Made by a program: the position numbers and the translations under genes. From positions 16,658 through 80,657 of the forward strand of contig JBDSNU010000007.1 in assembly GCA_039915165.1 (NCBI GenBank): DNA of 64,000 nucleotides, in the 5' to 3' direction. Positions 479 to 60,477 of this stretch are shown here, piece by piece. How positions within the stretch are numbered: the stretch's first letter is position 1; each line of letters begins with the position of its first letter. This stretch comes from Minisyncoccota bacterium (GTDB taxonomy: Bacteria > Patescibacteriota > Minisyncoccia > Phycocordibacterales > UBA9973). A model generated the notes under the pieces. It was not told where the DNA came from. It did not search any database and worked only from the letters and a program-made list of their open reading frames with translations.

Positions 479-532
479 TTGAGTGTAGGATTTTATTTTT
501 GACTTATCCACAGTTTTTCTTAGGGAATATAC

Positions 533-561
533 TTGCATGTGAACGATTGTTCACATATACT
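533..561 (+). promoter_or_regulatory. sigma-70-type promoter TTGCAT(533-538)-N17-TATACT(556-561) with an embedded Cheo-type LexA operator TGTGAACGATTGTTCACA (538-555)
   Basis: The hexamers, the 17-nt spacer and the 18-bp perfect palindrome with a GAAC-N4-GTTC core can all be read directly. A cognate lexA gene lies 450 nt downstream. The operator fills the promoter spacer. Confidence 0.65.
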
Positions 562-609
562 AAAAGAGTAGTACACGGAGGAAATAATTAGTTTAAAAAG
601 AGTTTATAT

Positions 610-795
610 ATGTCACAAAATCAATACATCGCAACATTAGAAAAACAGATCAACGCACTCAATCGTCACATTGATGCCAAGATCATCAAAGGCCAACAAT
701 ACGTTGAAGAGTCACGCAAGCACCACGCTTTGCTCCGCAAATTGCGAGAACAAAAGAGAGGCTTCATCGGTCGTGTCTTCCCATTATTTGCATAA
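610..795 (+). CDS. small basic coiled-coil protein (61 aa), putative SOS-regulated
   Basis: First ORF downstream of the LexA-box promoter. It is Lys/Arg-rich, has no TM segment, and belongs to no family I recognise. Confidence 0.45.
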   Translation: MSQNQYIATLEKQINALNRHIDAKIIKGQQYVEESRKHHALLRKLREQKRGFIGRVFPLFA

Positions 796-1006
796 TTTAT
801 ACTGCTATGAAAATTACTCCATTCCAACTCGCACTTAAAAATGAAATCAATCGCATTGAGCGACTTAGTAACAATTACTCGCAAGGTAACCATTCGCTTG
901 TTGCTTATACCTACGTTAAACCTATAAAACCTAGCAATTTTCTGCTACAATTGTTTCGTAACAGCTTACGCATTAGCTTCTAAGCTGATAACTCGTTATA
1001 ACCATT

Positions 1007-1570
1007 ATGGAAACAGATTACAAAGAAAAAATACTGACATTCTACCAATCTCAGCGCCGCATGCCGACCTATACTGAAATGATGAAGCTTTTCGGCTTCA
1101 AGTCAAAAAATGCAGTTGCTCGCGTAGTCACAAAACTTATTGCAGCGGGTATCGTCGCAAAAGACAAGCTAGGGAAACTAATTCCATCTGATAGTTTCAA
1201 TGATGTACCAATGCTTGGCTTTGTTACTGCCGGCCTGCCTGCGCCTGGTGAACTACTGACTGATACACTCAACATCGAAAACTATTTAATGCCTAAGAAG
1301 GCCTCCACATATCTTTTTGAAGTAACTGGTGACTCAATGATCGAAGCGCACATTGCTGATGGCGATATAGTTATTGCCGAACGATCAACTACTGCCAAAG
1401 AAGGTGATATTGTTATTGCTCAAATCGATGGGGAGTTCACTATGAAATATCTCCGCGGTAAAAGTGGTAAGCAATGGCTTGAACCAGCTAACAAGAAATA
1501 CAAACCGATTTATCCAGATTACGAACTAAGTATTGTTGCTATCGTTCGCGGAGTAATGCGTAAGTATTAA
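1007..1570 (+). CDS. lexA: LexA repressor (S24 peptidase, SOS regulator)
   Basis: N-terminal wHTH. The C-terminal domain has the cleavage site VTAG-LPAPG, the catalytic Ser motif GDSM, and a Lys within the YLRGK segment. Length 187 aa. Confidence 0.9.
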   Translation: METDYKEKILTFYQSQRRMPTYTEMMKLFGFKSKNAVARVVTKLIAAGIVAKDKLGKLIPSDSFNDVPMLGFVTAGLPAPGELLTDTLNIENYLMPKKASTYLFEVTGDSMIEAHIADGDIVIAERSTTAKEGDIVIAQIDGEFTMKYLRGKSGKQWLEPANKKYKPIYPDYELSIVAIVRGVMRKY

Positions 1571-2687: not shown

Positions 2688-4157
2688 ATGTCAAAAGCAG
2701 AAACAATAGTACGATTCGATGACGTCTCGTTTGAATATAGTGCCACGAAACCTATTTTAGAAGAGGTAACTTTCTCAATCCGTAAAGGTGCAAAGCTCAC
2801 TCTTATGGGACAAAATGGTGCCGGGAAAAGTACTATCTTCAATTTGCTGACAGGAGTGTATAAACAAGAAGAAGGAGTTATCAACGTTGTAAAAGGAACA
2901 ACCGTAGCAACAGCACGTCAGGTAATGCCACGTGACCAAATGGATCTAACGGTACGTGAATATTTCGAATCTCAATTCAATGAGAAGATATACGATATCG
3001 ACCCGCGTATCGATAATGTATTGGAAGTAGTAAACCTTCCGGTAAAAGATGTACATGACCGTATCATCAAAACTTTTTCTGGTGGACAGCAGGCTCGCTT
3101 ATTGCTTGCCTCGGCATTGATACAAGATCCTGATTTATTATTGCTCGATGAGCCGACAAATAACCTCGACACAGCTGGTATCCAGCACCTCACCAAATTC
3201 TTAATTGATTACAAGAAAACAGTATTGGTTATTTCTCACGATGCCGAATTCTTGAATGCCTTCACTGAAGGAGTGCTCTATTTAGATATCTTCAGTCGCA
3301 AAGTTGAACAATACACAGGCAACTATACTGACGTAGTGAAAGACATCGCTATTCGTATTGAAAAAGAAAATATGAAAAATGCCATGCTGGCAAAAGAAAT
3401 TCAAGCAAAGAAAGATAAAGCAAACATGTTTGCATACAAAGGAGGTCAAATGCGTTTAGTTGCAAAACGTATGCGTGAAAAAGCTGAAGAGCTTGAAGAA
3501 GATATCGTTGACGTTCGCAAAGAAGACAAAACTATTCGTCAGTTTGCTATTCCGTTTCAACAAGATTTGATCGGTGAGATTATCACTATCAATTCATTTA
3601 CGGTATTAAAAAACCACAAAGTAACTGAGCGCAAAGCAGCTATTGCGCTTCGCAAAAACCAGCACTTGTTACTAAAAGGACCAAATGGTATTGGTAAATC
3701 AACGTTACTCGAATCAATTGCTAATGGTACAGCAAAAGGATCTTCTATTAGCAAAGATGTACGCGTAGGGTATTACCGCCAAGACTTTTCTACACTAGAC
3801 TTCAATGACACAGTGTATCAATCACTTAAAAAAGCTATGGAAGCTTCGGGTATTCGTCCCAATGAGGAACGCCTTCGCTCAGTTGCTGCAAACTTCTTGA
3901 TCACTAGCGATGTTATCAATACTCGTATCGGAGCACTATCTGAAGGGCAAAAAGGTATGGTGGCATTTGCTAACTTGGTATTGATGGAACCAGGGTTGCT
4001 AATCCTCGATGAACCAACAAACCATATTAACTTCCGTCACTTGCCGATTATTGCAAAAGCATTGAGTGCTTATACTGGCGCGATGATTTTAGTTTCTCAC
4101 GTAAATGAGTTCGTGCACCAAATCCGTATCGACGAAACATTGGACTTAGATAAATAA
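2688..4157 (+). CDS. ABC-F family ATPase (tandem ABC domains, no TMD)
   Basis: Two Walker A motifs (GQNGAGKST and GPNGIGKST), two ABC signatures (FSGGQQARL and LSEGQKGMV), two Walker B motifs (LLLLDEPTN and LLILDEPTN), and a charged inter-domain linker. Confidence 0.85.
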   Translation: MSKAETIVRFDDVSFEYSATKPILEEVTFSIRKGAKLTLMGQNGAGKSTIFNLLTGVYKQEEGVINVVKGTTVATARQVMPRDQMDLTVREYFESQFNEKIYDIDPRIDNVLEVVNLPVKDVHDRIIKTFSGGQQARLLLASALIQDPDLLLLDEPTNNLDTAGIQHLTKFLIDYKKTVLVISHDAEFLNAFTEGVLYLDIFSRKVEQYTGNYTDVVKDIAIRIEKENMKNAMLAKEIQAKKDKANMFAYKGGQMRLVAKRMREKAEELEEDIVDVRKEDKTIRQFAIPFQQDLIGEIITINSFTVLKNHKVTERKAAIALRKNQHLLLKGPNGIGKSTLLESIANGTAKGSSISKDVRVGYYRQDFSTLDFNDTVYQSLKKAMEASGIRPNEERLRSVAANFLITSDVINTRIGALSEGQKGMVAFANLVLMEPGLLILDEPTNHINFRHLPIIAKALSAYTGAMILVSHVNEFVHQIRIDETLDLDK

Positions 4158-4158
4158 T

Positions 4159-5421
4159 ATGATTAAGAAAGCTGACAACGGCGCAATACAATACGATGTC
4201 ATAGTGATTGGCGGAGGAGCATCCGGGATGATGGCGGCCGGCAAGGCTGCTGAACTAGGCAAGAAAGTGCTTATTATAGAAAAAAATAAGTTCCTCGGTG
4301 AGAAATTAAAAATCAGTGGCGGTGGCCGCTGCAATATTACGAATGCTGAAGAAGATATACAAAAGTATTTAGATCACTACAAAAGTGCCAAGCAATTTTT
4401 ATTTTCTGCATTTGCACAATTTAGCAACAAAGACACCTTTACTTTTTTTGAAAAACTGGAGTTGCCACTTGTTGTACAGGCTCGTAAACGTGCATTTCCT
4501 CACACCGAAAAATCACTTGATGTATTTAAAGCGTTAGAACGATATATGAAATTAGGTAAAGTTACCGTACTTCCTAATTCAAAAATTAGTCTTATTGAAA
4601 GAACGAACGATATGATTACAGGCGTTGTAACAGCTAGTGGTGTGACATACACTGCAAAGTCATACATTCTAGCCACTGGTGGACTTTCTCATCCAGAAAC
4701 AGGGTCAACCGGTGATGGGTTTAATTGGTTGAAAGTACTTGGTCACACTGTTACTACTCCGACACCAACCATAGTACCTTTAGCTGTAAAAGAACAGTGG
4801 GTAAAAGAATTGGCTGGAGTATCACTTTCATTTATGAAAATCGCCTTTTATGCGGAAGGTAAGAAAAAAATTACCAAGACTGGGAAACTACTCTTCACTC
4901 ACTTTGGATTGTCTGGACCGCTTATTTTGAATGTAGCGGGCGATGTTGATGATCTACTACAAGAGGGAATAGTTACCGCGACTATTGATGCCTATCCAGA
5001 TACCGACCATGGAGCATTGGAGCAAAAAATTATTTCAGTATTTGATACAAATAAAAATAAAATTCTTAAAAATGTTTTTGATGATATCGTACCTCACGGC
5101 ATGATTGAAGCAGTATTTTCACTATTACCAGGACTCGATAAGGAATTAAAAGTTCATAGTGTTACCAAGGAGCAGCGCAAAGAGTTAGTAAATCTTTTGA
5201 AAGCCTTGCCAATGACTATTACTGGTCTCATGGGATATGACCGCGCAGTGGTAGCAGATGGCGGCATTCCACTTACCGAAATGGATATGAAGACTATGCG
5301 TTCTAAATGTATTAAAAATTTGTATATCACCGGAGACCTTTTGCATATCACTCGTCCCTCTGGAGGATTCTCATTACAACTTTGCTGGACAACTGGATTC
5401 ATCGCTGGACTTAATGCATAA
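4159..5421 (+). CDS. HI0933/BaiN-like FAD-dependent flavoprotein (aminoacetone oxidase family)
   Basis: N-terminal dinucleotide-binding motif VIVIGGGASGMMAA, followed by the family signature GGGRCNITN. Confidence 0.8.
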   Translation: MIKKADNGAIQYDVIVIGGGASGMMAAGKAAELGKKVLIIEKNKFLGEKLKISGGGRCNITNAEEDIQKYLDHYKSAKQFLFSAFAQFSNKDTFTFFEKLELPLVVQARKRAFPHTEKSLDVFKALERYMKLGKVTVLPNSKISLIERTNDMITGVVTASGVTYTAKSYILATGGLSHPETGSTGDGFNWLKVLGHTVTTPTPTIVPLAVKEQWVKELAGVSLSFMKIAFYAEGKKKITKTGKLLFTHFGLSGPLILNVAGDVDDLLQEGIVTATIDAYPDTDHGALEQKIISVFDTNKNKILKNVFDDIVPHGMIEAVFSLLPGLDKELKVHSVTKEQRKELVNLLKALPMTITGLMGYDRAVVADGGIPLTEMDMKTMRSKCIKNLYITGDLLHITRPSGGFSLQLCWTTGFIAGLNA

Positions 5422-5471: not shown

Positions 5472-6374
5472 ATGCAAAAAATCATCCCACATCTATGGCT
5501 TAACAAGAACGCTGAGGAAGCTGTTGCTTTCTATACTTCTATTTTTAATAACGGAAAAATTCTTGGCACTGCTGCCTATACAGAAGCAGGCCAAGAAATT
5601 CATCAAATGAAACCGGGTTCAATAATGAGTATCAATTTCGAAATCGAAGGTTTTGAATTTATTACTATAAATGGTGGTTCAATATTCACCATCAATCCCT
5701 CAATTTCTTTTATGGTTCACTATACTGACAAAGATGCCATTGGTGAATTGTGGGAGAAATTACTTGAAGGAGGCAAGACCTTGATGCCTTTGGATGCATA
5801 TCCATTCAGTGAAAAGTATGGTTGGGTGCAAGATAAATATGGAGTGTCATGGCAAATCATGCTCGGACAAGGAACTATTGTTCAAACTATCATGCCATCA
5901 TTAATGTATACACAACGAGTAGCGGGCAAAGCTGAAGAAGCAATCAATCTATATACTTCTACATTCCGAAACGGTGAGGTGAAAATGTTGGCACGATATC
6001 CTGCCGGCATGCCTGATGACAAAGAAGGAACACTGATGTATTCAGATTTCCTTATCGAAGGACAAATGTTTGCAGCTATGGATAGTGCGGGTAAGCATGC
6101 GTTCACCTTTAGTGAAGGAGTATCGCTGCTGGTTAACTGTGAGGACCAGACTGAAATCGATCGCTTATGGGAAGCATTGTCAGTAGATCCAGAGGCTGAA
6201 CAATGTGGTTGGATGAAAGACAAGTACGGCGTGTCGTGGCAAATTGTTCCTAACATCATGCAGGAAATATTACGCAGCGATGACACTGAAAAGAAGAATC
6301 GCGTAATTGCGGCAATGATGCCTATGAAGAAAATAGACCTTGATGTAATTGAAAAAGCTGCAAGAGGTGAGTAG
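5472..6374 (+). CDS. VOC-superfamily protein with tandem PhnB/3-demethylubiquinone-9 methyltransferase-like domains
   Basis: Two internal repeats, each ending in the segment KYGVSWQIM or KYGVSWQIV that is typical of the PF06983-type glyoxalase-like fold. Confidence 0.65.
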   Translation: MQKIIPHLWLNKNAEEAVAFYTSIFNNGKILGTAAYTEAGQEIHQMKPGSIMSINFEIEGFEFITINGGSIFTINPSISFMVHYTDKDAIGELWEKLLEGGKTLMPLDAYPFSEKYGWVQDKYGVSWQIMLGQGTIVQTIMPSLMYTQRVAGKAEEAINLYTSTFRNGEVKMLARYPAGMPDDKEGTLMYSDFLIEGQMFAAMDSAGKHAFTFSEGVSLLVNCEDQTEIDRLWEALSVDPEAEQCGWMKDKYGVSWQIVPNIMQEILRSDDTEKKNRVIAAMMPMKKIDLDVIEKAARGE

Positions 6375-19161: not shown

Positions 19162-20322
19162 ATGGGACAAACAAAAAGAGGAGGTATGTTGTACACTCAG
19201 TGTCTCATACCTATTAACAACGTTATTGTATTTCCACAAGTCCGCAAGACATTTGATCAAGAACTGATTACAGAACTTGCCGATGACATTGCTACAAATG
19301 GAATTATTTACCCTCCGGTTTTTGCAAAATTATCAGAGGAAAAATTCAAAGCCTACAAAACAGCATTTGAATTAATTTCAGGCAAACAGCTCAACGAAAT
19401 ACACTTTCCCACACACAAGGGATATTACTACTGCCTTATTGCGGGTGAACGAAGATTTCGTGCACACAAACAACTCTGGGAACACGGTTGTACTGAATGT
19501 AACGCTGTTGCAAAAATTGCCTTGAAAGAATTAAAACCGGGCCAGTGCTACCACTCTCATTACGGGGATAGCCATATTGAGGGTAGGGCATGCCTTAACA
19601 TTGATCCACTGTCAGCCAAATCAATTCAGTTCCGAGAAAATAATCACGTTAAGCCGCCATTTCATGAAGAAGCGGATGAATACGATCATTTTTTCAGATA
19701 TATGCAATTAGGTAACCCTAAATTGAATTTAACTGAGTTTGCAAAAATTGTTGGCGTATCAAAAGAAAAGGTTCGCCGTGCTTTATGGTTCAGAGAACTA
19801 CCTGAATCAGTACAAGATGCAGCGCGACAAGGCTACATCTCTTATTCTAATGCAATTGAATTGCGAAGAATCAATGACCTACCCGCAAGCTTGATTACAG
19901 AAGAAAAGAGGGCAGACCTGTTACTTGAACAAGCCAGTTACTTGTTATTGCATCCACGGATCAAAAACGATGAATATCGCAAACGATTACGTGAGCGCTT
20001 AGCCAATCTGAACAACAACACTCTTTTTGACGTGACACCTTTTATTATTAAAGAAAAAGGTAAGCGAAAAATTGTTGAAGAGCATTTAATTCCTCACTTA
20101 ATGCTCCTTGCTAAATACATTAAAAAAGTTGGTGAACTACAAAAAACCGGCAGTATCGGTAAAGAGCAGATTTTTGCTGGTGGCTCTCCGACAAATCAAT
20201 TAAAAGTGATTACGGAGGAACTACAAACAATCATTCCAGGATTTGAATTAAGTATGGAACAATTAAAGGCAATCGGCCTACTTAATCTTGAAAACAAATC
20301 CAAAACACGTGAAGCTGGTTAA
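19162..20322 (+). CDS. ParB/Srx-family protein (N-terminal ParB nuclease-like domain + HTH) with Cys/His-rich insertion; orphan (no ParA)
   Basis: Box I (FPQVRKTFDQELITELADDIATNGIIYPPV) and box II (LIAGERRFRA). ParB-type HTH (LTEFAKIVGVSKEKVRRALWFRELPESVQDAARQGYISYSNAIEL). An insert of about 70 aa carries C-x2-C, C, H-x-H and C residues. Confidence 0.7.
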   Translation: MGQTKRGGMLYTQCLIPINNVIVFPQVRKTFDQELITELADDIATNGIIYPPVFAKLSEEKFKAYKTAFELISGKQLNEIHFPTHKGYYYCLIAGERRFRAHKQLWEHGCTECNAVAKIALKELKPGQCYHSHYGDSHIEGRACLNIDPLSAKSIQFRENNHVKPPFHEEADEYDHFFRYMQLGNPKLNLTEFAKIVGVSKEKVRRALWFRELPESVQDAARQGYISYSNAIELRRINDLPASLITEEKRADLLLEQASYLLLHPRIKNDEYRKRLRERLANLNNNTLFDVTPFIIKEKGKRKIVEEHLIPHLMLLAKYIKKVGELQKTGSIGKEQIFAGGSPTNQLKVITEELQTIIPGFELSMEQLKAIGLLNLENKSKTREAG

Positions 20323-24955: not shown

Positions 24956-26212
24956 CTATTGGAATGTAGCAGGACTGGCGAATAGGTCAATAGCCTTTTG
25001 CAATTGGACATCAGTTTTGTCCTTCGGGTCAAATGGGATAACAATTTTAGGAGTAAGTCCTTTTGCAGAGATTGAAGTGCCATCTGGAGTGTACCAGTGC
25101 GCTACAGTCACCTTGAGTGATGTATCATCCGTAATAGGAATGACTTGTTGCACAGAACCCTTACCAAATGTTTGCTGGCCAACAAGCACACCGATACCTT
25201 GCTGACTTAATGCGCCTGCCAAGATTTCTGCAGCTGAAGCAGAACCTTGGTCTGCCAAGATAATAAGTTTGTCACTATCAGGGAAAATCTTTGGACCAGT
25301 ACTATTGTGCACACTAACTTCTGTAGGAGTCTTGCCAATTTCTTTTACGATCACCTTACCCTCTGGAATAAATTCACTACCGATCTGCACTGCAGCATCC
25401 AAATATCCACCAGGATTGCCACGAAGATCAATCAATAGCTTGTGGTCACCTGAAGCTAAGTATTTATCCATTGCGCCTTTAAACAACGTTGCTGATTGTG
25501 CAGAGAAACTATATAGATGGATAACAAATACATCGTTACCTTTCATCTCAGTATCAACAGTTGGTAGATCAATTGTTTGGCGAACAATCGGAGTAACAAT
25601 TGGTGCTGCAACGCCCTGTCTCATAAGGGTCAGTGTTACTGTAGTACCAGTTTTGCCTTGGATCATTGACACGGCCTGATCAACAGTAACTGATGAAGTT
25701 ATAGTGCTATCAATTTTTATAATTTGATCACCAGATAATACTCCGGCTTTTTCAGCAGGAGTTCCCTTCAAAGGAGCGATAACGGTCAATATACCGTTCT
25801 TTTCTCCGATTTGAATACCAATACCACTAAATGATCCGGCGATTTGTGCTTGGAATTGAGTATTTTGAGCTGGTGGGAAGAATGTTGTATACGGATCACC
25901 ATATGACGCTACCATGCCCTGTATAGCCCCATATACGCGGTCTTGGGCAGATACAGGAGTTGCTTCACTCTTACCGGGAGCAAAGTTTTGGCTCACAATT
26001 TGCCATGCCTTCCAAAAAGAAGAAAAGTCAGCACCTGTGGCACTTGGGTCACTGGCATGAACAAGGCTAGTTACCTTGGCAAATGCAGGTTGATTACCAT
26101 ACCCAACATATACTCCGCCAAAGAACACTACAGCGACTAATACTATAGCTCCAACAATTCGGAGTGCAGTTGTAGTAAAAAAAGATTTTTTTTGTGGTTC
26201 AATATTATTCAT
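24956..26212 (-). CDS. ctpA: carboxyl-terminal processing protease (S41 family, PDZ-containing)
   Basis: N-terminal TM, PDZ domain, and the S41 catalytic region (LIDLRGNPGGYL, catalytic Ser in LADQGSASAAEIL). Confidence 0.85.
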   Translation of the reverse strand: MNNIEPQKKSFFTTTALRIVGAIVLVAVVFFGGVYVGYGNQPAFAKVTSLVHASDPSATGADFSSFWKAWQIVSQNFAPGKSEATPVSAQDRVYGAIQGMVASYGDPYTTFFPPAQNTQFQAQIAGSFSGIGIQIGEKNGILTVIAPLKGTPAEKAGVLSGDQIIKIDSTITSSVTVDQAVSMIQGKTGTTVTLTLMRQGVAAPIVTPIVRQTIDLPTVDTEMKGNDVFVIHLYSFSAQSATLFKGAMDKYLASGDHKLLIDLRGNPGGYLDAAVQIGSEFIPEGKVIVKEIGKTPTEVSVHNSTGPKIFPDSDKLIILADQGSASAAEILAGALSQQGIGVLVGQQTFGKGSVQQVIPITDDTSLKVTVAHWYTPDGTSISAKGLTPKIVIPFDPKDKTDVQLQKAIDLFASPATFQ

Positions 26213-26444
26213 GAGTTTGTTCACTTGATGCAGTTCCCATTGTTGTATGTACAACACTGTGTTCTAAGTTTCGGATAATAATGCGTAGTGCGCGATAACT
26301 ATTGCGTAATAGTACAGCTAGTGTAATTAAGGCAACACCAATCAATACAGCAATGACTGTTTTCCATGTATTTGAAATGCCAAAAAATGGCAAGAACAAC
26401 ATTACAATGCCGAGCCAAAATAATACTCTAAATTTCCCTATCAT
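26205..26444 (-). CDS. small membrane protein (79 aa, two TM)
   Basis: ORF between rsmI and ctpA. Confidence 0.35.
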   Translation of the reverse strand: MIGKFRVLFWLGIVMLFLPFFGISNTWKTVIAVLIGVALITLAVLLRNSYRALRIIIRNLEHSVVHTTMGTASSEQTHE

Positions 26445-48562: not shown

Positions 48563-48634
48563 GGCCCTATCGTCTAACGGTTAGGACGAATCCTTCTCAA
48601 GGATTAAATCGGGGTTCGATTCCCCGTGGGGTCA
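48563..48634 (+). tRNA. tRNA-Glu (anticodon CTC)
   Basis: Cloverleaf: acceptor GGCCCTA/TGGGGTC with two G-U pairs, anticodon stem AATCC/GGATT, loop TTCTCAA, T-arm CGGGG-TTCGATT-CCCCG. No encoded CCA. Confidence 0.8.
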
Positions 48635-50117
48635 CTTTAGGGAATTTTGACTCGTCAATTAGCAGTTTTAGCTTGAAAACACTGCATATTTTCGGTGTTC
48701 GTAAATTTACCCCATCGAAGACTATACCTTTAGGAAAGTCGAACTCTTGGAACTTTCGCCTTATTTCTAAAGAGCTTTTTTCCCAGAACAAGTGAGGGGC
48801 CTGCAATACCTGAGCCGAATATTTTATAAGATCATTGATGTTGATATTCTCATTAACCGCTGCTTTTGAAACCTCCCGTAATTCCTCATTTTCTGATTCA
48901 AGGCGCTTAACCCGTAGCTCAAAACTATTTTCACTGATACTCCCCTTTCCGTGTAAGTCGATTAGTACATCTATTTGTTGGTTGATTTCATCTATTCGTT
49001 TGTGTATTGCCGCACTCACATGGGCGTCGTTGACCGTCCGCTTGCCAAAGTGCTTTTCTAAATATTCTTTTAATGCGTTTAAATGCGAAGTATCAAAGGC
49101 AAATTGCGACAAGAATGCTATAAATTTCTGCTCCAATAGTTCCTTTCTGATGGTTGTTCCAGGCAAATGAAAGGAATAATAGGGATACTTTTTGGTTTTT
49201 CCTTTCGACCAGTAGCCAGTAAGTTGCTTTCCGTCCTCGTTAAGAACGAAACGTCTCAAAGGGAAATCGGGATTTTCTTTTAAGTACTGTTTAATGACAT
49301 TCTTTCGTCCCTTCAATGCTGCTTGAACATCGTCAAATAGTGGTTCAGGAATAAACGTTTCAAAGGTTGCATTAACGACTAACCCGAAATTTTTAATGAT
49401 TCCTTTATATAATGGGTTTCGCAGCAGTCTAAAAAAATATCCCCTGCTAACAGCACCTCCTGCATTGTTGGTCAAACCTTTTTCTTTCATCATTAACCTA
49501 ATGACCTCCGAAGAGTATCTCCGTTGGGAAATCAATTCAAATGCTTCCCGTACCAAAGGTGCCATCTCATTTGGCGCAATGTTGGCCTTATTCCCTATTT
49601 TGACATTGCTGTATCCCAGTGGCGCTTTCCACACGTATCGGCCTTCTTGCACAGCTTCTCGCATCCCTCCGACACTCCGCTCAGTTCGCACTTCATTATC
49701 AAACTGACTAACATTGGCGATAATATTTTCCATGAAGCGACCCGCAGGGGTGTCCTCAAAATGTTCAGATACTGACTTGATTTCTATATTATATCTTTTA
49801 AGCTTAACTTTTATATAACTATAATCAGCGATGTTGCGGCTAATGCGGTCAATCTTGTACGCGATGACTGCATTGACTGCTTCTTTTCTATCACCACAAT
49901 ATGCAAGCATACGCTGTAATTCCTTTCGATCTGCCGTTTTTGCGCTTTCACCCTTCTCAATAAAAATTTCTGCTATTTCGAGTCCCTGATTAAGGGCGTA
50001 TTCGCGGCAAAGCCGCTCTTGCGTTACAAGGCTGTTTCCTTCGTCCACTTGTTCTTTTGTAGATACTCTGCAATAAATAACGGCGCGCTTAGAGTTATTT
50101 ATTATTTCGCTTTTCAT
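48597..50117 (-). CDS. large serine recombinase (integrase)
   Basis: Resolvase-type catalytic domain with a nucleophile Ser (AVIYCRVSTKEQ) and conserved R/D residues, then a recombinase domain and a coiled coil (LRVKRLESENEELRE). The last 12 codons are the reverse complement of the tRNA-Glu 3' end. Confidence 0.85.
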   Translation of the reverse strand: MKSEIINNSKRAVIYCRVSTKEQVDEGNSLVTQERLCREYALNQGLEIAEIFIEKGESAKTADRKELQRMLAYCGDRKEAVNAVIAYKIDRISRNIADYSYIKVKLKRYNIEIKSVSEHFEDTPAGRFMENIIANVSQFDNEVRTERSVGGMREAVQEGRYVWKAPLGYSNVKIGNKANIAPNEMAPLVREAFELISQRRYSSEVIRLMMKEKGLTNNAGGAVSRGYFFRLLRNPLYKGIIKNFGLVVNATFETFIPEPLFDDVQAALKGRKNVIKQYLKENPDFPLRRFVLNEDGKQLTGYWSKGKTKKYPYYSFHLPGTTIRKELLEQKFIAFLSQFAFDTSHLNALKEYLEKHFGKRTVNDAHVSAAIHKRIDEINQQIDVLIDLHGKGSISENSFELRVKRLESENEELREVSKAAVNENININDLIKYSAQVLQAPHLFWEKSSLEIRRKFQEFDFPKGIVFDGVNLRTPKICSVFKLKLLIDESKFPKVTPRGIEPRFNP

Positions 50118-50631
50118 AAAAATATGCCTCAACCAAGATTTCGGCCAACTGATCCAATAATATTTCTATAGGTGGTTCCTGCCCCGTTAAACCCAAAGCA
50201 GAGCCACGCATAACGTCATTGTTGCTACACAATAAACCACGTGGCTCTGCTTTAGGTACGTTATCGTATAAGTTCTTAGAGGAACCATACAAATCAATAA
50301 AACGACTGTTGCTGTATTCTTTTAAAACAATCAAATTATTGCAAAAAAAAGGTTTCTGTTTAGTGTTCCACGTATCAACAATTTGATTAAAATCAGTATT
50401 GTCCTTTATCGATACTGGTGTTTTACTCCTGTCATGTGAAGTCCGCGTACTAAGCAAATTACCTTCTCTAATAAAGGTCCTTACACGATATCTTTTTAAT
50501 TTATTGAGATTTTGCGCTTCACCCAAATTACCCGGATCCACTATTATCTTAATACATACATGAAAATCCTTCCCTGTAACTTCATTAAACGCCGTATTCA
50601 ATGTATTGCAAAAGGCGTTAGGTACAATCAA
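50095..50631 (-). CDS. hypothetical protein (178 aa), upstream of and overlapping the integrase start
   Basis: ORF only. Likely co-transcribed with the integrase. Confidence 0.35.
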   Translation of the reverse strand: MIVPNAFCNTLNTAFNEVTGKDFHVCIKIIVDPGNLGEAQNLNKLKRYRVRTFIREGNLLSTRTSHDRSKTPVSIKDNTDFNQIVDTWNTKQKPFFCNNLIVLKEYSNSRFIDLYGSSKNLYDNVPKAEPRGLLCSNNDVMRGSALGLTGQEPPIEILLDQLAEILVEAYFYEKRNNK

Positions 50632-54762: not shown

Positions 54763-56508
54763 TTATCTATCTGGTGGAATATTATAATAATTTGTTATAA
54801 ATTGGATCATACTAAAGAACGGGTCTCCCAAGGTCTGGATCGAGTACAGAATATTTTTGGGGTAGTAGTCATATAAGTATAGAACATATTTAGGATTAGT
54901 CGCAGGGAAAAATCCGATCATTGAGTGAAGGTTTCGGTCATTGTAATACCCTCCGCCATTTGGTTTAGCGATTTGGGCAGTACCCGTTTTTGCAGCCACG
55001 GTATAATTTTTGATACCGCGATGATACCCGTCATCAACTACATGGGTTAGCATGCCATCAATCGTTTTTATTGTTTCAGGTTTTAACAATGGTCCAACTT
55101 TTGGATAGTCTAATGTTTTAATTGTGCCATCTTCTTGATCGATAGATGTAACAAGGTGTGGAGTGACCAAATATCCCCCATTCGCGAGCGAGGTAAATCC
55201 ACGCACAATGTTCATTGGAGTAGTAGCGATACCTTGTCCAAAGGCCGCAGTAGCATAGTTCACATCGTTACTACCATTCAAACTACTCACCAATCCATTC
55301 ACTTCTCCTGGCAAATCAACACCGGTTTTTTGTCCTAATTTATATTTATTAATTAAATAATCCTTGAACAACTCTTTGCCCATATGTTGCTCGACATAGA
55401 CCATACCGGTGTTCAATGATTGGTTGAGTACATCTTGCATACTAGTACCTGGTCCACGGCCGCGCTTGTCGAAGTTATAAATAGTTTTGCCACCGATAAC
55501 CACTGAGCCACTGTCAGTATAGGTTGTTTGAGGAGTAACAACATTATTATCAATAGCTGCAGCCATGATAAGCGGCTTCACAATAGATCCCATTTCGTAC
55601 ACATTTTGTACAAATGGGTTGGAATACACGCCATTATCTTTTTCTATGCCATAATTATTTAAATCGAATGTTGGCACCTGTGCCATGGCAATAATTTCAC
55701 CAGTGTAGGGATCCATCACAATACCTCCCACTGATTCACTAGACCATTTTGTTTTCACGTCTGCAACTGTTTGTTCAAGCTGTGCCTGCACTGACGGTTC
55801 GATAGAAGTCACGATATCGCCTGTTGCAGCAGTATTCTTGAATACACTAGACTGAATGTTGGCAAAAATTTCAGCGAAAAAGTTCACGTAAAACTGACTG
55901 CCATTACGTGACAATACATCATTATAATATTGCTCCAAACCATAGTTTCCGACTAGCGTATTATCATTTTTATACGACACAAAGCCGACAGCTTTAGCCG
56001 CCAGTGATCCTCCAGGATAGTAGCGCCATTTATCTCGATACAGTGTCAATCCAGGGATTTTCTGTTTCGTCAGTGCGTCTGCTTGTGGTTGTGACAAGTG
56101 TTTTGCAATTTCTTCATATGGGTCATTTTTCTTTGCAACACTATTTAATACATCGGATTGAGTCACTGGTAGAACGGCATTAATTGCGGCGTAGAGTTGA
56201 TCTCCGTTGACCACCTGACTAGGATTGATAGCGGCTTTAAAACCGTTTTGAATAGTAGCAGCGGCAACTGTTGTACCGTCCTTACTAGTGAAGTAAATAC
56301 TACCACGATCAAATACACTGTTCGAAGGGGTAACATATTGGCGCTCTGCACGGTCACGGTAGTCCTTTGAACTAATGACCTGCAACATAAAAAGGCGAAT
56401 AACAATAATACCACCGAGGATTGCAACTCCGGTGATAATTATGTTTATTCGCTGATGATGAATATTACTGTCCGACATTCCATGCCACTGCAGGCTTTGC
56501 AACAGCAA
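54763..56508 (-). CDS. ftsI: class B penicillin-binding protein (FtsI-like D,D-transpeptidase)
   Basis: N-terminal TM, a dimerisation domain, and a transpeptidase domain with catalytic Ser in the SxxK motif (GSIVKP), S-x-N (SLN) and KTG (KTGTA). Lies in the dcw cluster after ftsL. Confidence 0.8.
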   Translation of the reverse strand: MLLQSLQWHGMSDSNIHHQRINIIITGVAILGGIIVIRLFMLQVISSKDYRDRAERQYVTPSNSVFDRGSIYFTSKDGTTVAAATIQNGFKAAINPSQVVNGDQLYAAINAVLPVTQSDVLNSVAKKNDPYEEIAKHLSQPQADALTKQKIPGLTLYRDKWRYYPGGSLAAKAVGFVSYKNDNTLVGNYGLEQYYNDVLSRNGSQFYVNFFAEIFANIQSSVFKNTAATGDIVTSIEPSVQAQLEQTVADVKTKWSSESVGGIVMDPYTGEIIAMAQVPTFDLNNYGIEKDNGVYSNPFVQNVYEMGSIVKPLIMAAAIDNNVVTPQTTYTDSGSVVIGGKTIYNFDKRGRGPGTSMQDVLNQSLNTGMVYVEQHMGKELFKDYLINKYKLGQKTGVDLPGEVNGLVSSLNGSNDVNYATAAFGQGIATTPMNIVRGFTSLANGGYLVTPHLVTSIDQEDGTIKTLDYPKVGPLLKPETIKTIDGMLTHVVDDGYHRGIKNYTVAAKTGTAQIAKPNGGGYYNDRNLHSMIGFFPATNPKYVLYLYDYYPKNILYSIQTLGDPFFSMIQFITNYYNIPPDR

Positions 56509-56803
56509 ATGCTACAGCAGTTCCTTTAACTAAACCAATTGAGCTGGCGTAATTTTCATTTAACTGTTGCTGATTTTTTAAATACACGCGCTCTTGGTCA
56601 CTCATAGAAGATATGAGCGCCTTGTTTGTTTGTTCAACAGCACGTTGGTTCACCACAGTAAATGTAATCGCTCCGACGAAGTAACTATAACATATAAATA
56701 GCACACCAGAACCTACCCATGTATACCGAATAATTAAACGGAGTGTTTTATTAACATCATTCATTGGGACAGATTCAATTTTGTTTTTTAGTGCTGCAAT
56801 CAT
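56465..56803 (-). CDS. FtsL-like cell-division protein (single TM + coiled coil)
   Basis: Position between rsmH and ftsI. Start set at the internal Met (56803), 16 nt after the rsmH stop. Confidence 0.45.
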   Translation of the reverse strand: MIAALKNKIESVPMNDVNKTLRLIIRYTWVGSGVLFICYSYFVGAITFTVVNQRAVEQTNKALISSMSDQERVYLKNQQQLNENYASSIGLVKGTAVAFAVAKPAVAWNVGQ

Positions 56804-56819
56804 TGTAGTATTTAAATTA

Positions 56820-57731
56820 TTATAATTTTTCGATCGTTCGCAATTTTGCGCTTCGTGATCGAGGGTTCGTTTGTAATTCTTCGTCGGATGGTGCAATAGG
56901 TTTCTTGGTAAGGATGGAGCCAATCGATTCTTCTGTCTTGGTTTTCATCCATTGTTTAACGAGTCGGTCTTCGAGACTATGGAAAGTGATGATGCTTAAT
57001 CGCCCATGAGGACTCAGTGCTTCCCACCATGAGTCCATTGCCGTAGTAAGCGTACCAAGCTCATCATTCACTGCTATCCGTAAGGCTTGAAAAGTCTTTG
57101 TGGCAGGGTGAATGCGCCCTCTGCGTGGCACAGCAGCCTCAATAACGGCAGCCAGCTGGACAGCAGTTACAATCGGCGTGATTGCTCTAGCTGCAACAAT
57201 GGCACGCGCTATGCGTCGAGAACTGCGATCTTCGCCATAACCATAAATTATGTCAGCGATTGATTCTTCTCTCCAGGTATTCACAATGTCATATGCATTG
57301 AAGCCAGTATGTGATCCTTGTTCAGAGAAGGTCATAGTCAACGGTGTATCGCTATGAAATGAAAATCCGCGAGTATCAGCAAGTAATTGGAAGACACTAG
57401 TTCCTAGATCGAGCAATACTTTGTTTACAGTAGTAATACCAGCTTGTTCTAAAATAGCAGTAGTATCTTTGAAGTTTGAGTGAACAAACTTCACATTTTT
57501 TGCTCCAACAAATTTTTCTTCGAAACGTCCCTCTGCTGCCTCATCGAGGTCAACACAGATAAGCATTCCTGTATCATGCAATGCTTCAGCAATCACACTA
57601 CTGTGACCACCTCCACCAAATGTACCGTCAACAATAACATCACCATCGGTGATATCGAGTGACATAACAGATTCGTGTAAAAGAACGGGTGTGTGAACTG
57701 GCCCTGAGCCTGTCGAATGGGTAGTTTTCAT
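56820..57731 (-). CDS. rsmH: 16S rRNA (cytosine1402-N4)-methyltransferase
   Basis: HTPVLLHES...DGTFGGGGHS SAM motif, and a conserved C-terminal region. Lies in the dcw cluster after mraZ. Confidence 0.9.
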   Translation of the reverse strand: MKTTHSTGSGPVHTPVLLHESVMSLDITDGDVIVDGTFGGGGHSSVIAEALHDTGMLICVDLDEAAEGRFEEKFVGAKNVKFVHSNFKDTTAILEQAGITTVNKVLLDLGTSVFQLLADTRGFSFHSDTPLTMTFSEQGSHTGFNAYDIVNTWREESIADIIYGYGEDRSSRRIARAIVAARAITPIVTAVQLAAVIEAAVPRRGRIHPATKTFQALRIAVNDELGTLTTAMDSWWEALSPHGRLSIITFHSLEDRLVKQWMKTKTEESIGSILTKKPIAPSDEELQTNPRSRSAKLRTIEKL

Positions 57732-57732
57732 A

Positions 57733-58167
57733 TTACAGTACTCCGATAGCTCCAAGTCGTTCTGCGAGCGTATCAGCATTCGCTTCTACCTGACGTTTAT
57801 ATTTCTGCCAAGTAGCTTCGTCCCATAGTTCAAGGCGATTGTATACGCCAATAACCGAAACCTTGTCTTTAATACCAGCACGATCCTTAAGAAAGTCTGG
57901 TAACAAAATACGGCCATTCGCATCAACCGATACTTCTGTCGCTCCACCAAGGAAATAACGACTGAAGCTTCGAGTATCAGACTGTAACATAGAGCCTTCT
58001 GCCAACTGTTCGGCTTTTTTCTTCCATTCAGCTGCAGTAAAAACAAATAATGACTGCTCCAAACCTGGCGCAACAATTACCGTCTTCCCCATTTCCTTAC
58101 GGAACTTAACAGGAAGCGATAATCTATTTTTTTCATCAATATTGTGTGTATATTCGCCGATTAACAT
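57733..58167 (-). CDS. mraZ: transcriptional regulator MraZ
   Basis: Two SpoVT/AbrB-like halves with the DxxxR motifs (IDEKNRLSLP and VDANGRILLP). Start set at MLIGEY. Confidence 0.85.
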   Translation of the reverse strand: MLIGEYTHNIDEKNRLSLPVKFRKEMGKTVIVAPGLEQSLFVFTAAEWKKKAEQLAEGSMLQSDTRSFSRYFLGGATEVSVDANGRILLPDFLKDRAGIKDKVSVIGVYNRLELWDEATWQKYKRQVEANADTLAERLGAIGVL

Positions 58168-58204
58168 ATTATTTACATTTACCACTTCGTCCCACTTGCT
58201 ACCA

Positions 58205-58262
58205 TTATATCCCACTTAGTCACCCCACCGCAAATAATTTGTGGGGATAACACAGAAAAACC
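58205..58262 (-). promoter_or_regulatory. candidate MraZ operator region: GTGGG-type repeats upstream of mraZ
   Basis: On the coding strand the sequence reads CCCCAC-N12-GTGGGGTGACTAAGTGGG, which contains two direct GTGGG boxes and an inverted CCCCAC. Confidence 0.35.
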
Positions 58263-58294
58263 CCACCGTACGGTGGGGTCTTCGTTTTTGTTAC

Positions 58295-58753
58295 CTATTC
58301 AACACTAACAATAGTGTATTCCATATCACCTCTCGGTGTTGAAACTGTAACGGTATCGCCTTTTTTCTTGCCATACAGCGCGCTGCCAATTGGTGACTTA
58401 TATGAGATTTTGCCAGATAACATATCTGTTTCTTCGCTCCCTACCAAAACAAATGTGCGATTATTGCCTTCATTATCTTTTTTGATCACGACAGTTGAAC
58501 CAATATCGATAGTGCCGTTGACTGAATGTTGAATAACAACAGCATGTTTGAGCACATTTTCGATGTTACCAATACGCTCTTCAAGTCTACCTTGTTCTTC
58601 ACGAGCAATGTGATATTCAGCATTTTCGGACAAATCACCCAGGCGCTTGGCGTATTCAATAGACGCGATTACTTCCTTGCGTTTTACAGTCGTTAATTCC
58701 TTCAATTCGGCTTCGAGTGTGTCTTTGTTTTCTTGTGTCAGATATTCTTTCAT
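58295..58753 (-). CDS. greA: transcription elongation factor GreA
   Basis: N-terminal coiled coil with the conserved acidic tip (LSENAEY) and a C-terminal FKBP-like domain. A CCCCACCG/CGGTGGGG terminator follows. Confidence 0.9.
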   Translation of the reverse strand: MKEYLTQENKDTLEAELKELTTVKRKEVIASIEYAKRLGDLSENAEYHIAREEQGRLEERIGNIENVLKHAVVIQHSVNGTIDIGSTVVIKKDNEGNNRTFVLVGSEETDMLSGKISYKSPIGSALYGKKKGDTVTVSTPRGDMEYTIVSVE

Positions 58754-58779
58754 GGATGCATTACTATACTATCTTTTAA

Positions 58780-60477
58780 TTATTGGGTCAAAAGTTCAGG
58801 ATTTGCGGCATATAAATCAATAACGGGTTTTATGGCGTATTTTGCACCACTGGAAACGATAGGACCATTTTCCATCAATACCACAAAGGCGTATTTGGGT
58901 TTATCTAAGGGGAAATATCCTTCGATCCACGAGTTAACGCGAGTGTTACCACTGATCTGTGCCGTACCGGATTTGGCAGCAACAGCCAATGTGGTATTTT
59001 GTAGCACAGTTGCAGTTCCTCCTGGATCAGTTACTGTCATTCGCATTGCCTCATCAATCACTCGATATTGGGCCTCTGTAAACGGGAGGTGTTCGATCGG
59101 CCCCAATGGTTTACCGTCTAAACTTTTCAAAATACTTGGTGTCACCAGTGTACCGTGCGATGCCAACCCTCCTACAGCACGCAGCATCTGAATAGGTGTT
59201 ACCTGAAAACCATACTGACCAATGGCAGTGTGGTACGTGTCACCAACGCGCCACATAGGATCTTTGGGAAAGTTTTTTGCCTTCCATGCAATACCTGGGA
59301 TCGTACCAGTAAGTTCTCCAGAGAAATTAATACCGGTTTTTTGCCCAATACCAAAAAGTGTTGAGTACTTATCAATATTGGCAATACCCAAACCAGGTTG
59401 ACCACCTAATCCACCGCCGATTTCATAAAAGTATGAGTCGGAAGATACAGCAATTGCTTTGCGCATATCAACATCGCCATGGTTCGCATTATCTTTAAAG
59501 ATCGTGAATTGACCTGGGGCATATGGATTTGGAATACGAACTTCACCGGTTGTATGGAGTACTGTATTGGCATCAATGACCCCTTCTTGTAATGCACCAA
59601 TAGCAAAGAACGGCTTCACGATCGAACCAGGAGTATAGAGACCGTCAGTTAGTCGATTGAGGAAAGGACGGGCGGGGTCTTTGAGGTATCCATTAATGGT
59701 CGCAGTGTCCTTACCTGTCGACAAAATATTTTCATCATATTCAGGATAACTCGTCATAGCAATAAGTTCACCAGTATCGATGTTCATGACTGCCCCTGCG
59801 CCACCAACATATCCTGACTGCTCAGCCAATGCCTTTATGCCGTCATATAATGTGGACTCTACGCGAGTATCTACTGCCAATGAAATATTTCTGCCTTGTA
59901 TAGGATCTTCAACCAGCCCCTGCGAAACAGTGTTGCCATTCACATCTGTTTCAATAAGCTGTGTGCCATTTTTCCCAGCAAGATCAGTATCAAATTGTTT
60001 TTCTACACCATCCTTACCCATGGTACGAGTCTGCCAAAATTTTCCTTTTGTATCTTTTGCGGGATAAGAAACATACCCTAGCAAACTAGCGAAGCCACCT
60101 TGTTGTATATAATTTCGAAATGTAGGTACAACATCATTACCTGGAGTATTCCATGCCAACTCTACACCGTTACGATCGTAAATAACACCACGGTCGGCAA
60201 ATACAGCGATATGGTTCAAACTATTATTTTCACTTTTGCGTTCATAGTATGCAGACTTAGCAATTTGCAAAAAACCCAATCTTCCCACAAAAAATACAGC
60301 AATGGTTACCATCACTGCCAGTAGTACACCAAATGATTGCTTGCTCAACGGCTGCTCCATTCGGCCTTCAAATTGCTGACGGTCGAATGCCGGTAGATTA
60401 TTTACATCAAGCAGGATCTCATCAGGATGTAATTCTGCGCCATATATTTTTTTGTTACGTCTACGCTTCCAAACCAT
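58780..60477 (-). CDS. mrdA: class B penicillin-binding protein 2 (elongation-type transpeptidase)
   Basis: TM, pedestal domain, and a transpeptidase domain with SxxK (GSIVKP), S-x-D (SSD) and KSGTA motifs. Confidence 0.8.
   Translation of the reverse strand: MVWKRRRNKKIYGAELHPDEILLDVNNLPAFDRQQFEGRMEQPLSKQSFGVLLAVMVTIAVFFVGRLGFLQIAKSAYYERKSENNSLNHIAVFADRGVIYDRNGVELAWNTPGNDVVPTFRNYIQQGGFASLLGYVSYPAKDTKGKFWQTRTMGKDGVEKQFDTDLAGKNGTQLIETDVNGNTVSQGLVEDPIQGRNISLAVDTRVESTLYDGIKALAEQSGYVGGAGAVMNIDTGELIAMTSYPEYDENILSTGKDTATINGYLKDPARPFLNRLTDGLYTPGSIVKPFFAIGALQEGVIDANTVLHTTGEVRIPNPYAPGQFTIFKDNANHGDVDMRKAIAVSSDSYFYEIGGGLGGQPGLGIANIDKYSTLFGIGQKTGINFSGELTGTIPGIAWKAKNFPKDPMWRVGDTYHTAIGQYGFQVTPIQMLRAVGGLASHGTLVTPSILKSLDGKPLGPIEHLPFTEAQYRVIDEAMRMTVTDPGGTATVLQNTTLAVAAKSGTAQISGNTRVNSWIEGYFPLDKPKYAFVVLMENGPIVSSGAKYAIKPVIDLYAANPELLTQ

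Follow-up and report, generated by a model that had tools for sequence, protein, structure and literature searches.

Which genes does a bacterium of the candidate phyla radiation (CPR) place under its SOS repressor LexA, and which signals does the promoter in front of them read? The question is raised by a locus near the start of a 64,000-nucleotide (nt) stretch of a Minisyncoccota genome (assembly GCA_039915165.1, contig JBDSNU010000007.1, positions 16,658 to 80,657 of the forward strand; hereafter the window), where lexA follows a gene for a 61-amino-acid (aa) protein. A preliminary description had proposed that an SOS-type, LexA-operated promoter drives this novel small protein together with lexA, and the recurrence of the arrangement in about 80 genomes strongly supports that proposal. 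We found that positions 463-1605 form a self-contained SOS operon of three genes, all on the + strand: the 61-aa gene (610-795), a second small gene encoding a 58-aa protein (807-983) and lexA (1007-1570).

A three-gene SOS operon led by a conserved small gene

The operon is regarded as self-contained because both hairpins that bound it fold far better than shuffled controls. The upstream one (463-492, + strand), detected with a terminator scanner as an intrinsic terminator with a U-run, has a folding energy of -16.6 kcal/mol (z = -5.4), and none of 200 shuffles was as stable. The downstream one (about 1573-1605), which ends the operon, reaches -13.5 kcal/mol (z = -3.2) and runs into UUUUUUG.

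Related loci were collected by a scan of one genome per species, which returned 571 loci, one per contig, the best of them in a metagenome-assembled genome (MAG) of Candidatus Nomurabacteria with 95% identity. Eighty genome loci were compared with the window in detail, the denominator varying with the feature: 82 loci for orthologs detected by tblastn, 81 for the operator, 73 for aligned promoters, 76 for the DnaA box and 78 for gene spacing. The same promoter, operator and gene order were present in about 80 genomes and about 30 metagenomic contigs, and because they recur phylogenetically we do not consider the locus a product of chance.

An ortholog of the 61-aa protein lies just upstream of lexA in 80 of the 82 loci, the two misses being contigs cut at lexA. 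Every lexA with sufficient upstream sequence among the 80 related genomes is thus preceded by the small gene, which is always the first of the operon; in 35 of 78 loci it overlaps lexA or stops 0-12 nt short of it. Single-nucleotide codon changes between orthologs comprise 382 synonymous and 153 non-synonymous ones, as opposed to 83 and 536 in a shifted frame, with the differences concentrated at third codon positions. The 61-aa open reading frame (ORF), an ATG ORF noted in the preliminary description as Lys/Arg-rich, is a real gene under purifying selection.

The promoter and its predicted LexA operator

Both hexamers reported earlier are present on the + strand, TTGCAT at 533-538 and TATACT at 556-561, separated by a 17-nt spacer. 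Their description as a near-consensus promoter was overstated, as TTGCAT matches TTGACA at three of six positions and a consensus scanner did not list the promoter. We call it on the grounds of its conservation, not of its match to the consensus. The -35 hexamer is TTGCAT in 29 of the 73 orthologous promoters, and TTGAC[A/T/G] accounts for most of the remainder at the same position; the -10 hexamer is TATACT in 60 and TATAAT in 10 of the 73, always 1 nt past the operator.

The spacer between the hexamers is occupied by the predicted LexA operator, GTGAACGATTGTTCAC (539-554). What had been described as a perfect palindrome of 18 base pairs (bp) is TGTGAACGATTGTTCACA (538-555), with 7-bp arms, TGTGAAC and GTTCACA, around a non-self-complementary GATT; its GAAC-N4-GTTC core was confirmed as GAACGATTGTTC at 541-552. 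The family consensus is the 16-mer GTGAACGnnCGTTCAC, near-invariant at positions 1-7 and 10-16 across 73 loci. At position 10 the window carries T for C, a substitution also found in several of its closest relatives (L003, L008 and L010; the prefix L denotes related loci). In 73 of 81 loci an exact GAAC-N4-GTTC lies no more than 130 nt upstream of the gene orthologous to the 61-aa one, four further loci have one operator mismatch (GTGTACG...) and the remaining ones are truncated.

The core is indeed shared with the Firmicutes-type operator to which the site had been assigned, but the flanks differ and the host belongs to the Patescibacteria/CPR (Nomurabacteria/Paceibacteria). The Staphylococcus aureus LexA operator is given as CGAAC-N4-GTTCG (table in PMC9578287). 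In contrast to this Cheo box, the sites described here have TG instead of C before GAAC (TGAAC...GTTCA in 73 of 73) and an invariant G/C inside the N4, as in the consensus above.

An operator that fills the -35/-10 spacer is in the classic position for repression by occlusion. This conserved 16-bp palindrome, the predicted operator, occupies the spacer of lexA's own operon in 77 loci, and LexA very probably autoregulates the operon.

The search for further operators covered the 64-kilobase (kb) window, 3-4 kb flanks and an exact-match scan of metagenomes. A scan for the palindrome, suggested earlier as a way to define the regulon, gave no credible further member in the window and no extra site with at most two mismatches in the 80 loci: all 77 sites of that quality in these loci and the window sit at the lexA-operon promoter, and neither the 520 kb of related loci nor the 64-kb window contains another operator of the GTGAACGnnCGTTCAC type. 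When up to three mismatches were allowed, the 16-mer matched four times in the window (1.6 expected), the promoter site alone having fewer than three. The bare GAAC-N4-GTTC occurs four times in the window (0.75 expected). The copies at 5872, 51045 and 54503 were rejected as LexA targets, since all of them lack the extended consensus; the copy at 51045 lies, on inspection, inside a coding ORF, and the other two, by their coordinates, are also inside listed ORFs.

The metagenome scan for the exact 16-mer returned at least 120 stretches. Among the matches listed, 31 have a LexA homolog within a few hundred bases, and 88 without a lexA link are mostly chance-like, in unrelated and often high-GC DNA. 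Only L085 and L149 (at a contig end) resemble the module among those listed without lexA. In L085 (2950-3093), a TTATCCAC-like box, an exact operator and TATATAAT stand before a different, truncated ORF (MKKTEINSG...) at the contig end; it is the only candidate for a second regulon member among the metagenome matches listed.

Seven contigs of higher GC content (0.46-0.61; L096, L114, L131, L160, L172, L178 and L188), as compared with 38-42% in the window, carry TTGACA-GTGAACGnnCGTTCAC-TATACT directly before lexA. Their LexA is more distant (39-52% identity) and no small gene is present. Because the operator precedes lexA in lineages without the small gene, we tie it to LexA and not to the small protein; judging by this distribution, the operator is older than the small gene or has a wider range.

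That the promoter is of the SOS type is independently supported by its cargo in other lineages, in which longer operons stand behind the same module (L203 4811-6526; L205 4790-6483; L207 4791-6310). In these, the small gene and lexA are followed by a PIF1-family helicase, by an N6/N4 DNA methyltransferase and then MGMT, or by an 86-aa UmuD-like protein and a Y-family polymerase, and the cargo operons share the DnaA box, -35 hexamer, operator and -10 hexamer. As to the 80 genomes, L023 and L068 have a Y-family polymerase gene behind lexA, and at least L061 and L069 have MGMT, which begins 1 nt past lexA. In the window, the terminator comes directly after lexA, without further cargo.

The 5' untranslated leader of the window (562-609, + strand) is 48 nt long, or about 40 nt when counted from the predicted start about 7 nt past the -10 hexamer. 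A structured RNA in this leader was considered and rejected, as it is unstructured (minimum free energy 0 kcal/mol), and the leaders of relatives are too heterogeneous for a consensus RNA fold. In many lineages (L003-L082) the leader has a motif a few bases past the -10 hexamer, (A)GGTCG(C)..ATTA...TAA(T/C), which takes the form GGAGTAATTAT in the subclade of the window. The motif is too distant from the ATG for a normal Shine-Dalgarno site, and it folds into a hairpin, ACAGGT...ACCTGT, in the subclade L017-L037. In L029, L038, L046, L067, L073, L075 and L078, the small gene has its ATG only 6-8 nt past the -10 hexamer, and the operon mRNA of these seven loci is predicted to be leaderless.

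A conserved DnaA box beside the SOS promoter

A DnaA-box consensus 9-mer, TTATCCACA, lies at 504-512 on the + strand, 20 nt 5' of the -35 hexamer, and is the sole exact copy in the 64-kb window. The preliminary description had recorded a single box upstream of the -35 hexamer, one position off (503-511), and had treated it as incidental. On the comparative evidence, it is under functional constraint and among the best-conserved elements of the locus. Of 76 related loci, 63 have an exact copy no more than 70 nt upstream of the operator and eight more have one with a single mismatch, as against four exact copies in the remaining 446 kb of flanking sequence, or 0.0006 per equivalent stretch. The orientation is the same in 68 of 71 loci. 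The gap between box and operator falls into clusters of 7-8, 12-17 (mode 15-16) and 25-26 nt, the window belonging to the last. Exact boxes were also present in 18 of the 24 evaluable metagenomic small-gene loci and in the loci with cargo (L203-L208). None of the seven higher-GC loci with lexA alone has an exact box; two have a one-mismatch version.

DnaA is the most economical binder for this element, because the 9-mer is the near-universal DnaA recognition sequence and the specificity of DnaA domain IV is generally conserved. We therefore regard 504-512 as a probable DnaA binding site, and it seems fairly probable that DnaA acts on the promoter from there. Two other explanations of the box were rejected. 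It is not part of an origin (oriC), because there is no cluster of boxes (a single box, with 14 sites of at most one mismatch in the window against 21.6 expected) and because GC skew and gene orientation suggest the terminus; neither a dnaA gene nor an origin was found in the 64-kb window. Nor is it a generic promoter element, given one exact copy in 64 kb and four in 446 kb of flanks.

Joint control by DnaA and LexA has been described for Escherichia coli uvrB, recN and dinJ (PMC6015884), which resemble the present locus in having a consensus DnaA box beside or overlapping a LexA-controlled promoter. In Bacillus subtilis, the small checkpoint gene sda is directly controlled by DnaA (PMC8203912); the likeness lies in a small helical protein as the controlled product, and the protein described here has no homology to Sda. 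Unlike these cases, the present one consists of a single box, 5' of the -35 hexamer, class-wide and at the lexA operon itself. By analogy, the pairing of DnaA box and LexA operator suggests a single promoter that responds both to replication status and to DNA damage.

The 61-aa protein family

The product of the first gene is a basic protein with a Phe-rich C-terminal tail (12 K+R, 5 D+E), and the median net charge of its family is +8. AlphaFold2 predicts a single helix spanning residues 3-56 (pLDDT 88.9). M1, N18, I21, D22, I25, Y31 and H38 are invariant in both family alignments; for K24 and G28 this holds in one of them, with at least 90% conservation in the other. Phe accounts for 26% of the tail across the family, and in the AlphaFold2 model the tail has a pLDDT of 51-61. 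Distant members retain the N-terminal core and the aromatic tail, and the length of the linker between them varies. Since the tail is kept while the linker varies, as membrane-targeting tails behave, we read it as a possible membrane-targeting element. As a lead only, it resembles the MinD tail, KGFLKRLFGG.

The earlier statement that the protein has no recognisable family was borne out by the profile searches that had been suggested for it: Pfam, NCBIfam, PHROGs and PDB gave no meaningful match, and the family is unannotated. Sub-threshold hits to HisKA, the H-NS N-terminal domain, Mis12 and others were rejected as coiled-coil noise, and the family profile run against all PDB chains gave only two chance coiled-coil matches (E about 2). 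An exhaustive profile search of 1.84 billion representatives retrieved 356 cluster representatives at E <= 1e-3. The best 150 of the 356 are all about 42-133 aa long; the longer members inspected are apparent over-extended start calls or variants with a longer linker, without fusion to a known domain. Every named member is a 'hypothetical protein' without a Pfam domain.

A tblastn search of the small gene against 50,697 phage records gave no match. A 29-kb viral contig, L209 (IMGVR_UViG_3300045921_000069), encodes a tail-less 55-aa homolog at 4001-4168, a bona fide family member by hhalign (probability 98.8%). The 3' end of this viral gene extends into the beginning of an ORF (4149-4784) that encodes a 211-aa membrane protein, in which a lysozyme-like motif, CESG...YGIFQ, was seen by eye and which has no Pfam match. 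About 1 kb downstream of the small gene, at 5130-5366, the contig encodes a 78-aa stand-alone LexA DNA-binding-domain protein (PF01726, E = 1.4e-8). No LexA operator was found in the 6.6-kb stretch of L209.

A second small gene in the gap before lexA

The interval between the 61-aa ORF and lexA had been described as a gap of 210 nt without a LexA box of its own. No second LexA box was found there, but the interval, of 211 nt, holds the 58-aa gene, which is also called as a gene on Logan contigs. A homologous ORF is present in 27 of 27 loci with a gap of about 180-240 nt before lexA and absent where the 61-aa gene abuts lexA, so that this gene is restricted to a subclade. Its codon changes, 186 synonymous and 72 non-synonymous as opposed to 31 and 257 in a shifted frame, show coding selection. 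The protein has a conserved N-terminal helix, TPFQxxLKNELxRLExL (in its family form TPF(Q/K)xL..E(L/M)xRLExL), a variable middle and a hydrophobic tail of the FLLQLF type. Compared by hhalign, the 58-aa and 61-aa families give a colinear weak match (probability 25%, E = 7.7e-4); descent of the two genes as paralogs from a tandem duplication is possible but unproven.

The third gene encodes a bona fide LexA

The 187-aa product of the third gene is a bona fide LexA, with a winged helix and S24 fold, a cleavage site and a Ser/Lys dyad. Peptidase_S24 (PF00717) matches residues 68-180 with E = 1.9e-23, and the Pfam match to LexA_DNA_bind (PF01726) is marginal (E = 0.046). The NCBIfam model TIGR00498 (lexA) aligns over positions 20-201 of 203 with 106 bits, a narrow miss of its cut-off of 110.95 that is consistent with a divergent CPR ortholog. 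A75-G76, S110 (in GDSM) and K147 are invariant in 26 homologs. G76 and S110 are 34 residues apart and S110 and K147 37 residues apart, presumably the same spacing as in E. coli LexA, whose corresponding residues we take to be G85, S119 and K156.

In the AlphaFold2 model (pLDDT 76), three helices and a beta wing are followed by a beta-rich domain. The top Foldseek matches are full-length LexA structures (3JSO, 8TRG and 3K2Z; E about 1e-12, TM-score up to 0.69, about 196-200 columns), which cover LexA bound to DNA, LexA bound to RecA and Thermotoga LexA; C-terminal domains of LexA, UmuD and lambda cI were matched as well. By sequence, the best match in the PDB is full-length T. maritima LexA, and phage UmuD-like and repressor PHROGs are also matched. 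The protein has thousands of relatives, of which the closest named ones are LexA/S24 peptidases of Candidatus Paceibacterota, Nomurabacteria and the Patescibacteria group. The NCBI taxonomy of the related loci is Patescibacteria group, Parcubacteria group. Many of the L018-L082 records, whose LexA is 61-68% identical to that of the window, are titled 'uncultured Candidatus Saccharibacteria bacterium'; either the operon reaches beyond Paceibacteria or the MAG labels are loose.

Genomic surroundings of the operon

The gene upstream of the operon (47-478, + strand), of which the 3' part was read, is ended by the hairpin at 463-492, which isolates the operon from it. The terminator on the other side is common to the operon and a convergent LPG-synthase-like gene (1590-2627, - strand), identified by its ORF and a Pfam match. 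The neighbours of the locus are housekeeping genes: enolase, phosphoglycerate mutase, an ABC-F ATPase and RsgA.

No canonical SOS gene was seen in the window. Its xseA, RmuC, ExoX-like exonuclease, division and cell-wall (dcw) cluster and CtpA-like protease genes carry no operator. The protease, an S41 PDZ protein of the CtpA/CtpB kind, is encoded at 24956-26257, and the division/cell-wall cluster, with MraW and two FtsI-type penicillin-binding proteins, lies at 54763-60477. In B. subtilis, CtpA degrades the SOS division inhibitor YneA. The CtpA-like protease and the division/cell-wall cluster are candidate partners or targets of a checkpoint effector.

The window probably spans the replication terminus, because the maximum of the cumulative GC skew (about 19-20 kb) coincides with a switch in gene strand: genes are oriented + at 2.7-20.3 kb and - at 20.8-64 kb and so converge. 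A protein with a ParB N-terminal domain is encoded at the switch (19162-20322). Further along, a large serine recombinase gene (48597-50132, - strand) overlaps or abuts a tRNA-Glu gene (48563-48635, + strand), and several small ORFs without a family match follow at 50-52 kb. This region may be an integrated element; no direct repeats were found flanking the tRNA-Glu and recombinase genes.

Discussion

The sequence analysis establishes the layout of the locus, how far it is conserved, the coding selection on both small genes and that the regulator is LexA. From the architecture of the locus and its conservation, we infer binding of LexA and of DnaA at the promoter, inducibility of the operon and an effector function of its first product. 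A LexA dimer on the 16-bp palindrome in the spacer would block RNA polymerase, so that the operon is autorepressed from a single sigma-70-type promoter. Upon DNA damage, RecA-stimulated self-cleavage of LexA at Ala75-Gly76 by the Ser110/Lys147 dyad would lead to derepression. DnaA on TTATCCACA, just 5' of the -35 hexamer, would allow the promoter to integrate the status of the replication initiator with DNA damage. The 61-aa protein could be a parallel coiled coil or a partner-binding helix, with a basic linker and an aromatic amphipathic tail that brings it to the membrane. It would be the conserved output of the response and, as an SOS checkpoint effector, would hold back division or the cell cycle, analogous to the small inhibitors encoded beside lexA elsewhere and not homologous with them, and the 58-aa protein would be a lineage-specific second effector of similar build. 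Taken as a whole, this scheme of a LexA-autorepressed, DnaA-modulated SOS operon with a small checkpoint effector is the one we tentatively favour, with the chances of its being right in every part slightly below even.

LexA autoregulation through a box of the GAAC-N4-GTTC type is textbook. The operon resembles the Cheo-box systems of Firmicutes and Actinobacteria, such as B. subtilis DinR/LexA, both in an operator of that type overlapping the promoter of the lexA operon and in a regulator with a winged helix-turn-helix, an S24 autopeptidase, an Ala-Gly site and a Ser/Lys dyad. It differs from them in its CPR host, in lexA being last in the operon, in the operator exactly filling the -35/-10 spacer and in having no other strong site nearby. 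A class-wide small-protein family leading the lexA operon, its lineage-specific 58-aa companion and a conserved DnaA box at a fixed position beside the SOS promoter all appear undescribed as far as checked.

The small protein looks like the main output of the response, because no other strong operator was found in the scanned DNA. A checkpoint role, or that of a division inhibitor, which the preliminary description had raised, is favoured for it on three grounds, of which this is the first. Second, the SOS division inhibitors known from Gram-positive bacteria, namely YneA (Bacillus, Listeria), ChiZ (Mycobacterium), DivS (Corynebacterium) and SosA (Staphylococcus), are small membrane-associated proteins that do not resemble one another and whose genes stand beside lexA (PMC6851548). 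The protein described here likewise is small and lineage-restricted, has its gene beside lexA under a LexA operator and is predicted to act at the membrane. Third, double control by DnaA and LexA would suit a replication/division checkpoint. By analogy with these inhibitors, we consider the role a possibility, held with some doubt.

The differences from these inhibitors are considerable. Their genes are divergent from lexA, whereas the 61-aa gene is co-transcribed upstream of it. They have an N-terminal transmembrane segment, an extracellular C-terminus and usually LysM; the 61-aa protein has neither segment nor LysM, but is a cytoplasmic basic helix with a short aromatic tail and has no sequence similarity to them. 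In Pseudomonas aeruginosa, lexA and sulA are co-transcribed from one LexA-repressed promoter, with lexA first and sulA second, and SulA is a RecA-fold FtsZ binder of about 160 aa. The likeness there is co-transcription with lexA; the gene order differs and no SulA domain (PF03846) was matched by Pfam in the protein of the window or in 76 orthologs.

Several observations weigh against the checkpoint scheme. No transmembrane segment was found, as no 19-residue window in 76 members reaches a Kyte-Doolittle mean of 1.6 (maximum 0.94). Neither LysM nor any other Pfam domain was detected in the protein of the window (E <= 1) or in 76 orthologs (E <= 0.01), and no similarity to SulA, YneA, SosA, ChiZ, SidA or DidA was found. 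The hydrophobic moment of the tail, 0.56, exceeds that of shuffled tails (0.49) only slightly. A gene co-directional and co-transcribed with lexA would be made at a basal level, which is awkward for a potent inhibitor. The only viral homolog is tail-less and lies near a gene for a stand-alone LexA DNA-binding domain, which fits a role as a LexA partner at least equally well. The operator survey was confined to the window, the 3-4 kb flanks and the metagenome matches listed.

A last point of this kind concerns the operator itself. Sanchez-Osuna, Barbe and Erill (Environ Microbiol 19:3465) reportedly defined, in 2017, a LexA-binding motif and core regulon of Patescibacteria by comparative genomics and in vitro binding. 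A later paper of the same group cites it among studies of direct-repeat LexA motifs (PMC7739468), and a citation of it also appears in PMC8565304. The study concerns the same superphylum and the same regulator, in what the citing passage presents as a direct-repeat context, as opposed to the inverted repeat seen here. As it is listed under direct repeats, the present operator may already have been described there or may differ; our literature search found no text describing the motif of the 2017 study.

The main rival to the checkpoint scheme, which we nevertheless consider unlikely, is that the 61-aa protein is an accessory factor of LexA (or RecA), kept at a fixed ratio to LexA and tuning its DNA binding or self-cleavage. 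Its strict co-occurrence with lexA, the fixed gene order and the coupling or overlap of the two genes in translation in 35 of 78 loci would fit such a factor, the invariant polar residues along one helix suggest a specific protein partner, and the sole viral homolog has lost the tail, its gene being placed about 1 kb 5' of that for the stand-alone LexA_DNA_bind protein. A precedent exists in gp7 of phage GIL01, a 50-aa LexA-binding co-repressor that acts with Bacillus LexA. Like gp7, the 61-aa protein is very small, helical and tied to LexA, with a family member on a viral contig; in contrast to gp7, its family is chromosomal, class-wide and provided with a hydrophobic tail, and shows no similarity to any PDB chain. 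Against such a factor, a structure of the gp7-LexA complex has reportedly been solved and should be among the PDB chains, in which the profile search (E <= 10) found only chance coiled coils. Moreover, should LexA have no strong target besides this operon, a pure modulator would govern a response that produces nothing else; lineages that share the operator but have no small gene manage without it, and the conserved Phe-rich tail would have no obvious role.

It is improbable that the small protein instead regulates replication initiation or DnaA, in the manner of Sda, YabA or Hda and in genomes that apparently lack them. The DnaA box accompanies the small-gene operon, with exact copies in 63 of 76 loci from genomes and 18 of 24 from metagenomes, its exact form is missing from all seven higher-GC loci with lexA alone (two have one mismatch), and DnaA directly controls sda in B. 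subtilis (PMC8203912). However, neither sequence nor profile comparison relates the family to Sda, YabA or another DnaA-interacting family, a single box implies possible regulation of the gene by DnaA and not a product acting on DnaA, and the tail points to the membrane and not to the replisome.

An SOS-induced membrane-active toxin of the TisB/DinQ kind, causing depolarisation and dormancy and corresponding to the toxin-like peptide of the preliminary description, is very improbable. The predicted LexA control, the small size, the basic character and the hydrophobic aromatic C-terminal tail agree with it, but there is no stretch of transmembrane length by the Kyte-Doolittle values given above, and pore-forming peptides do not typically have a polar core of 45 residues in which N, D, K, Y and H are invariant. 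The gene is also co-transcribed with lexA, and no antitoxin or antisense RNA feature was seen. Finally, an immunity module of a prophage or mobile element, with a CI-like S24 repressor and a small upstream gene, can practically be dismissed: S24 repressors are common in phages, the LexA ORF matches phage PHROGs and one viral contig carries a homolog, but the neighbours are housekeeping genes, the locus occurs in 571 genome stretches of the class, LexA is matched over its whole length by sequence and by structure, with a winged helix of the LexA type, the phage records contain no match to the small gene and the viral locus lacks the operator.

A broader picture, which is somewhat unlikely to hold in full, would be that Paceibacteria have a minimal, essentially single-operon SOS response, in which one promoter reads a DnaA box and a LexA operator. 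Its universal output would be the undescribed family of 60-70-aa helical proteins, acting either as a membrane-tethered cytoplasmic checkpoint effector or as a dedicated LexA partner, and at least one CPR phage would have copied the family beside a cleavage-proof LexA DNA-binding domain.

The CPR/Patescibacteria make up a large share of bacterial diversity and are mostly uncultured, and little is known of their cell-cycle control and stress response. The locus yields a sharply defined LexA operator and promoter for a whole class and, open to direct test, a promoter on which DnaA and LexA would converge. It also reveals a new, strongly conserved family of small proteins, encoded first in the SOS operon and often nearly its sole product. 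Standard annotation labels this class-wide SOS gene 'hypothetical'. The 61-aa protein is short and synthesisable and has invariant residues that can be mutated, which makes the question of its role testable in heterologous hosts. If it is a partner of LexA, it would be, to our knowledge, the first class-wide chromosomal LexA accessory protein; if it is a checkpoint effector, it would represent a new way of coupling DNA damage to division in ultra-small cells.

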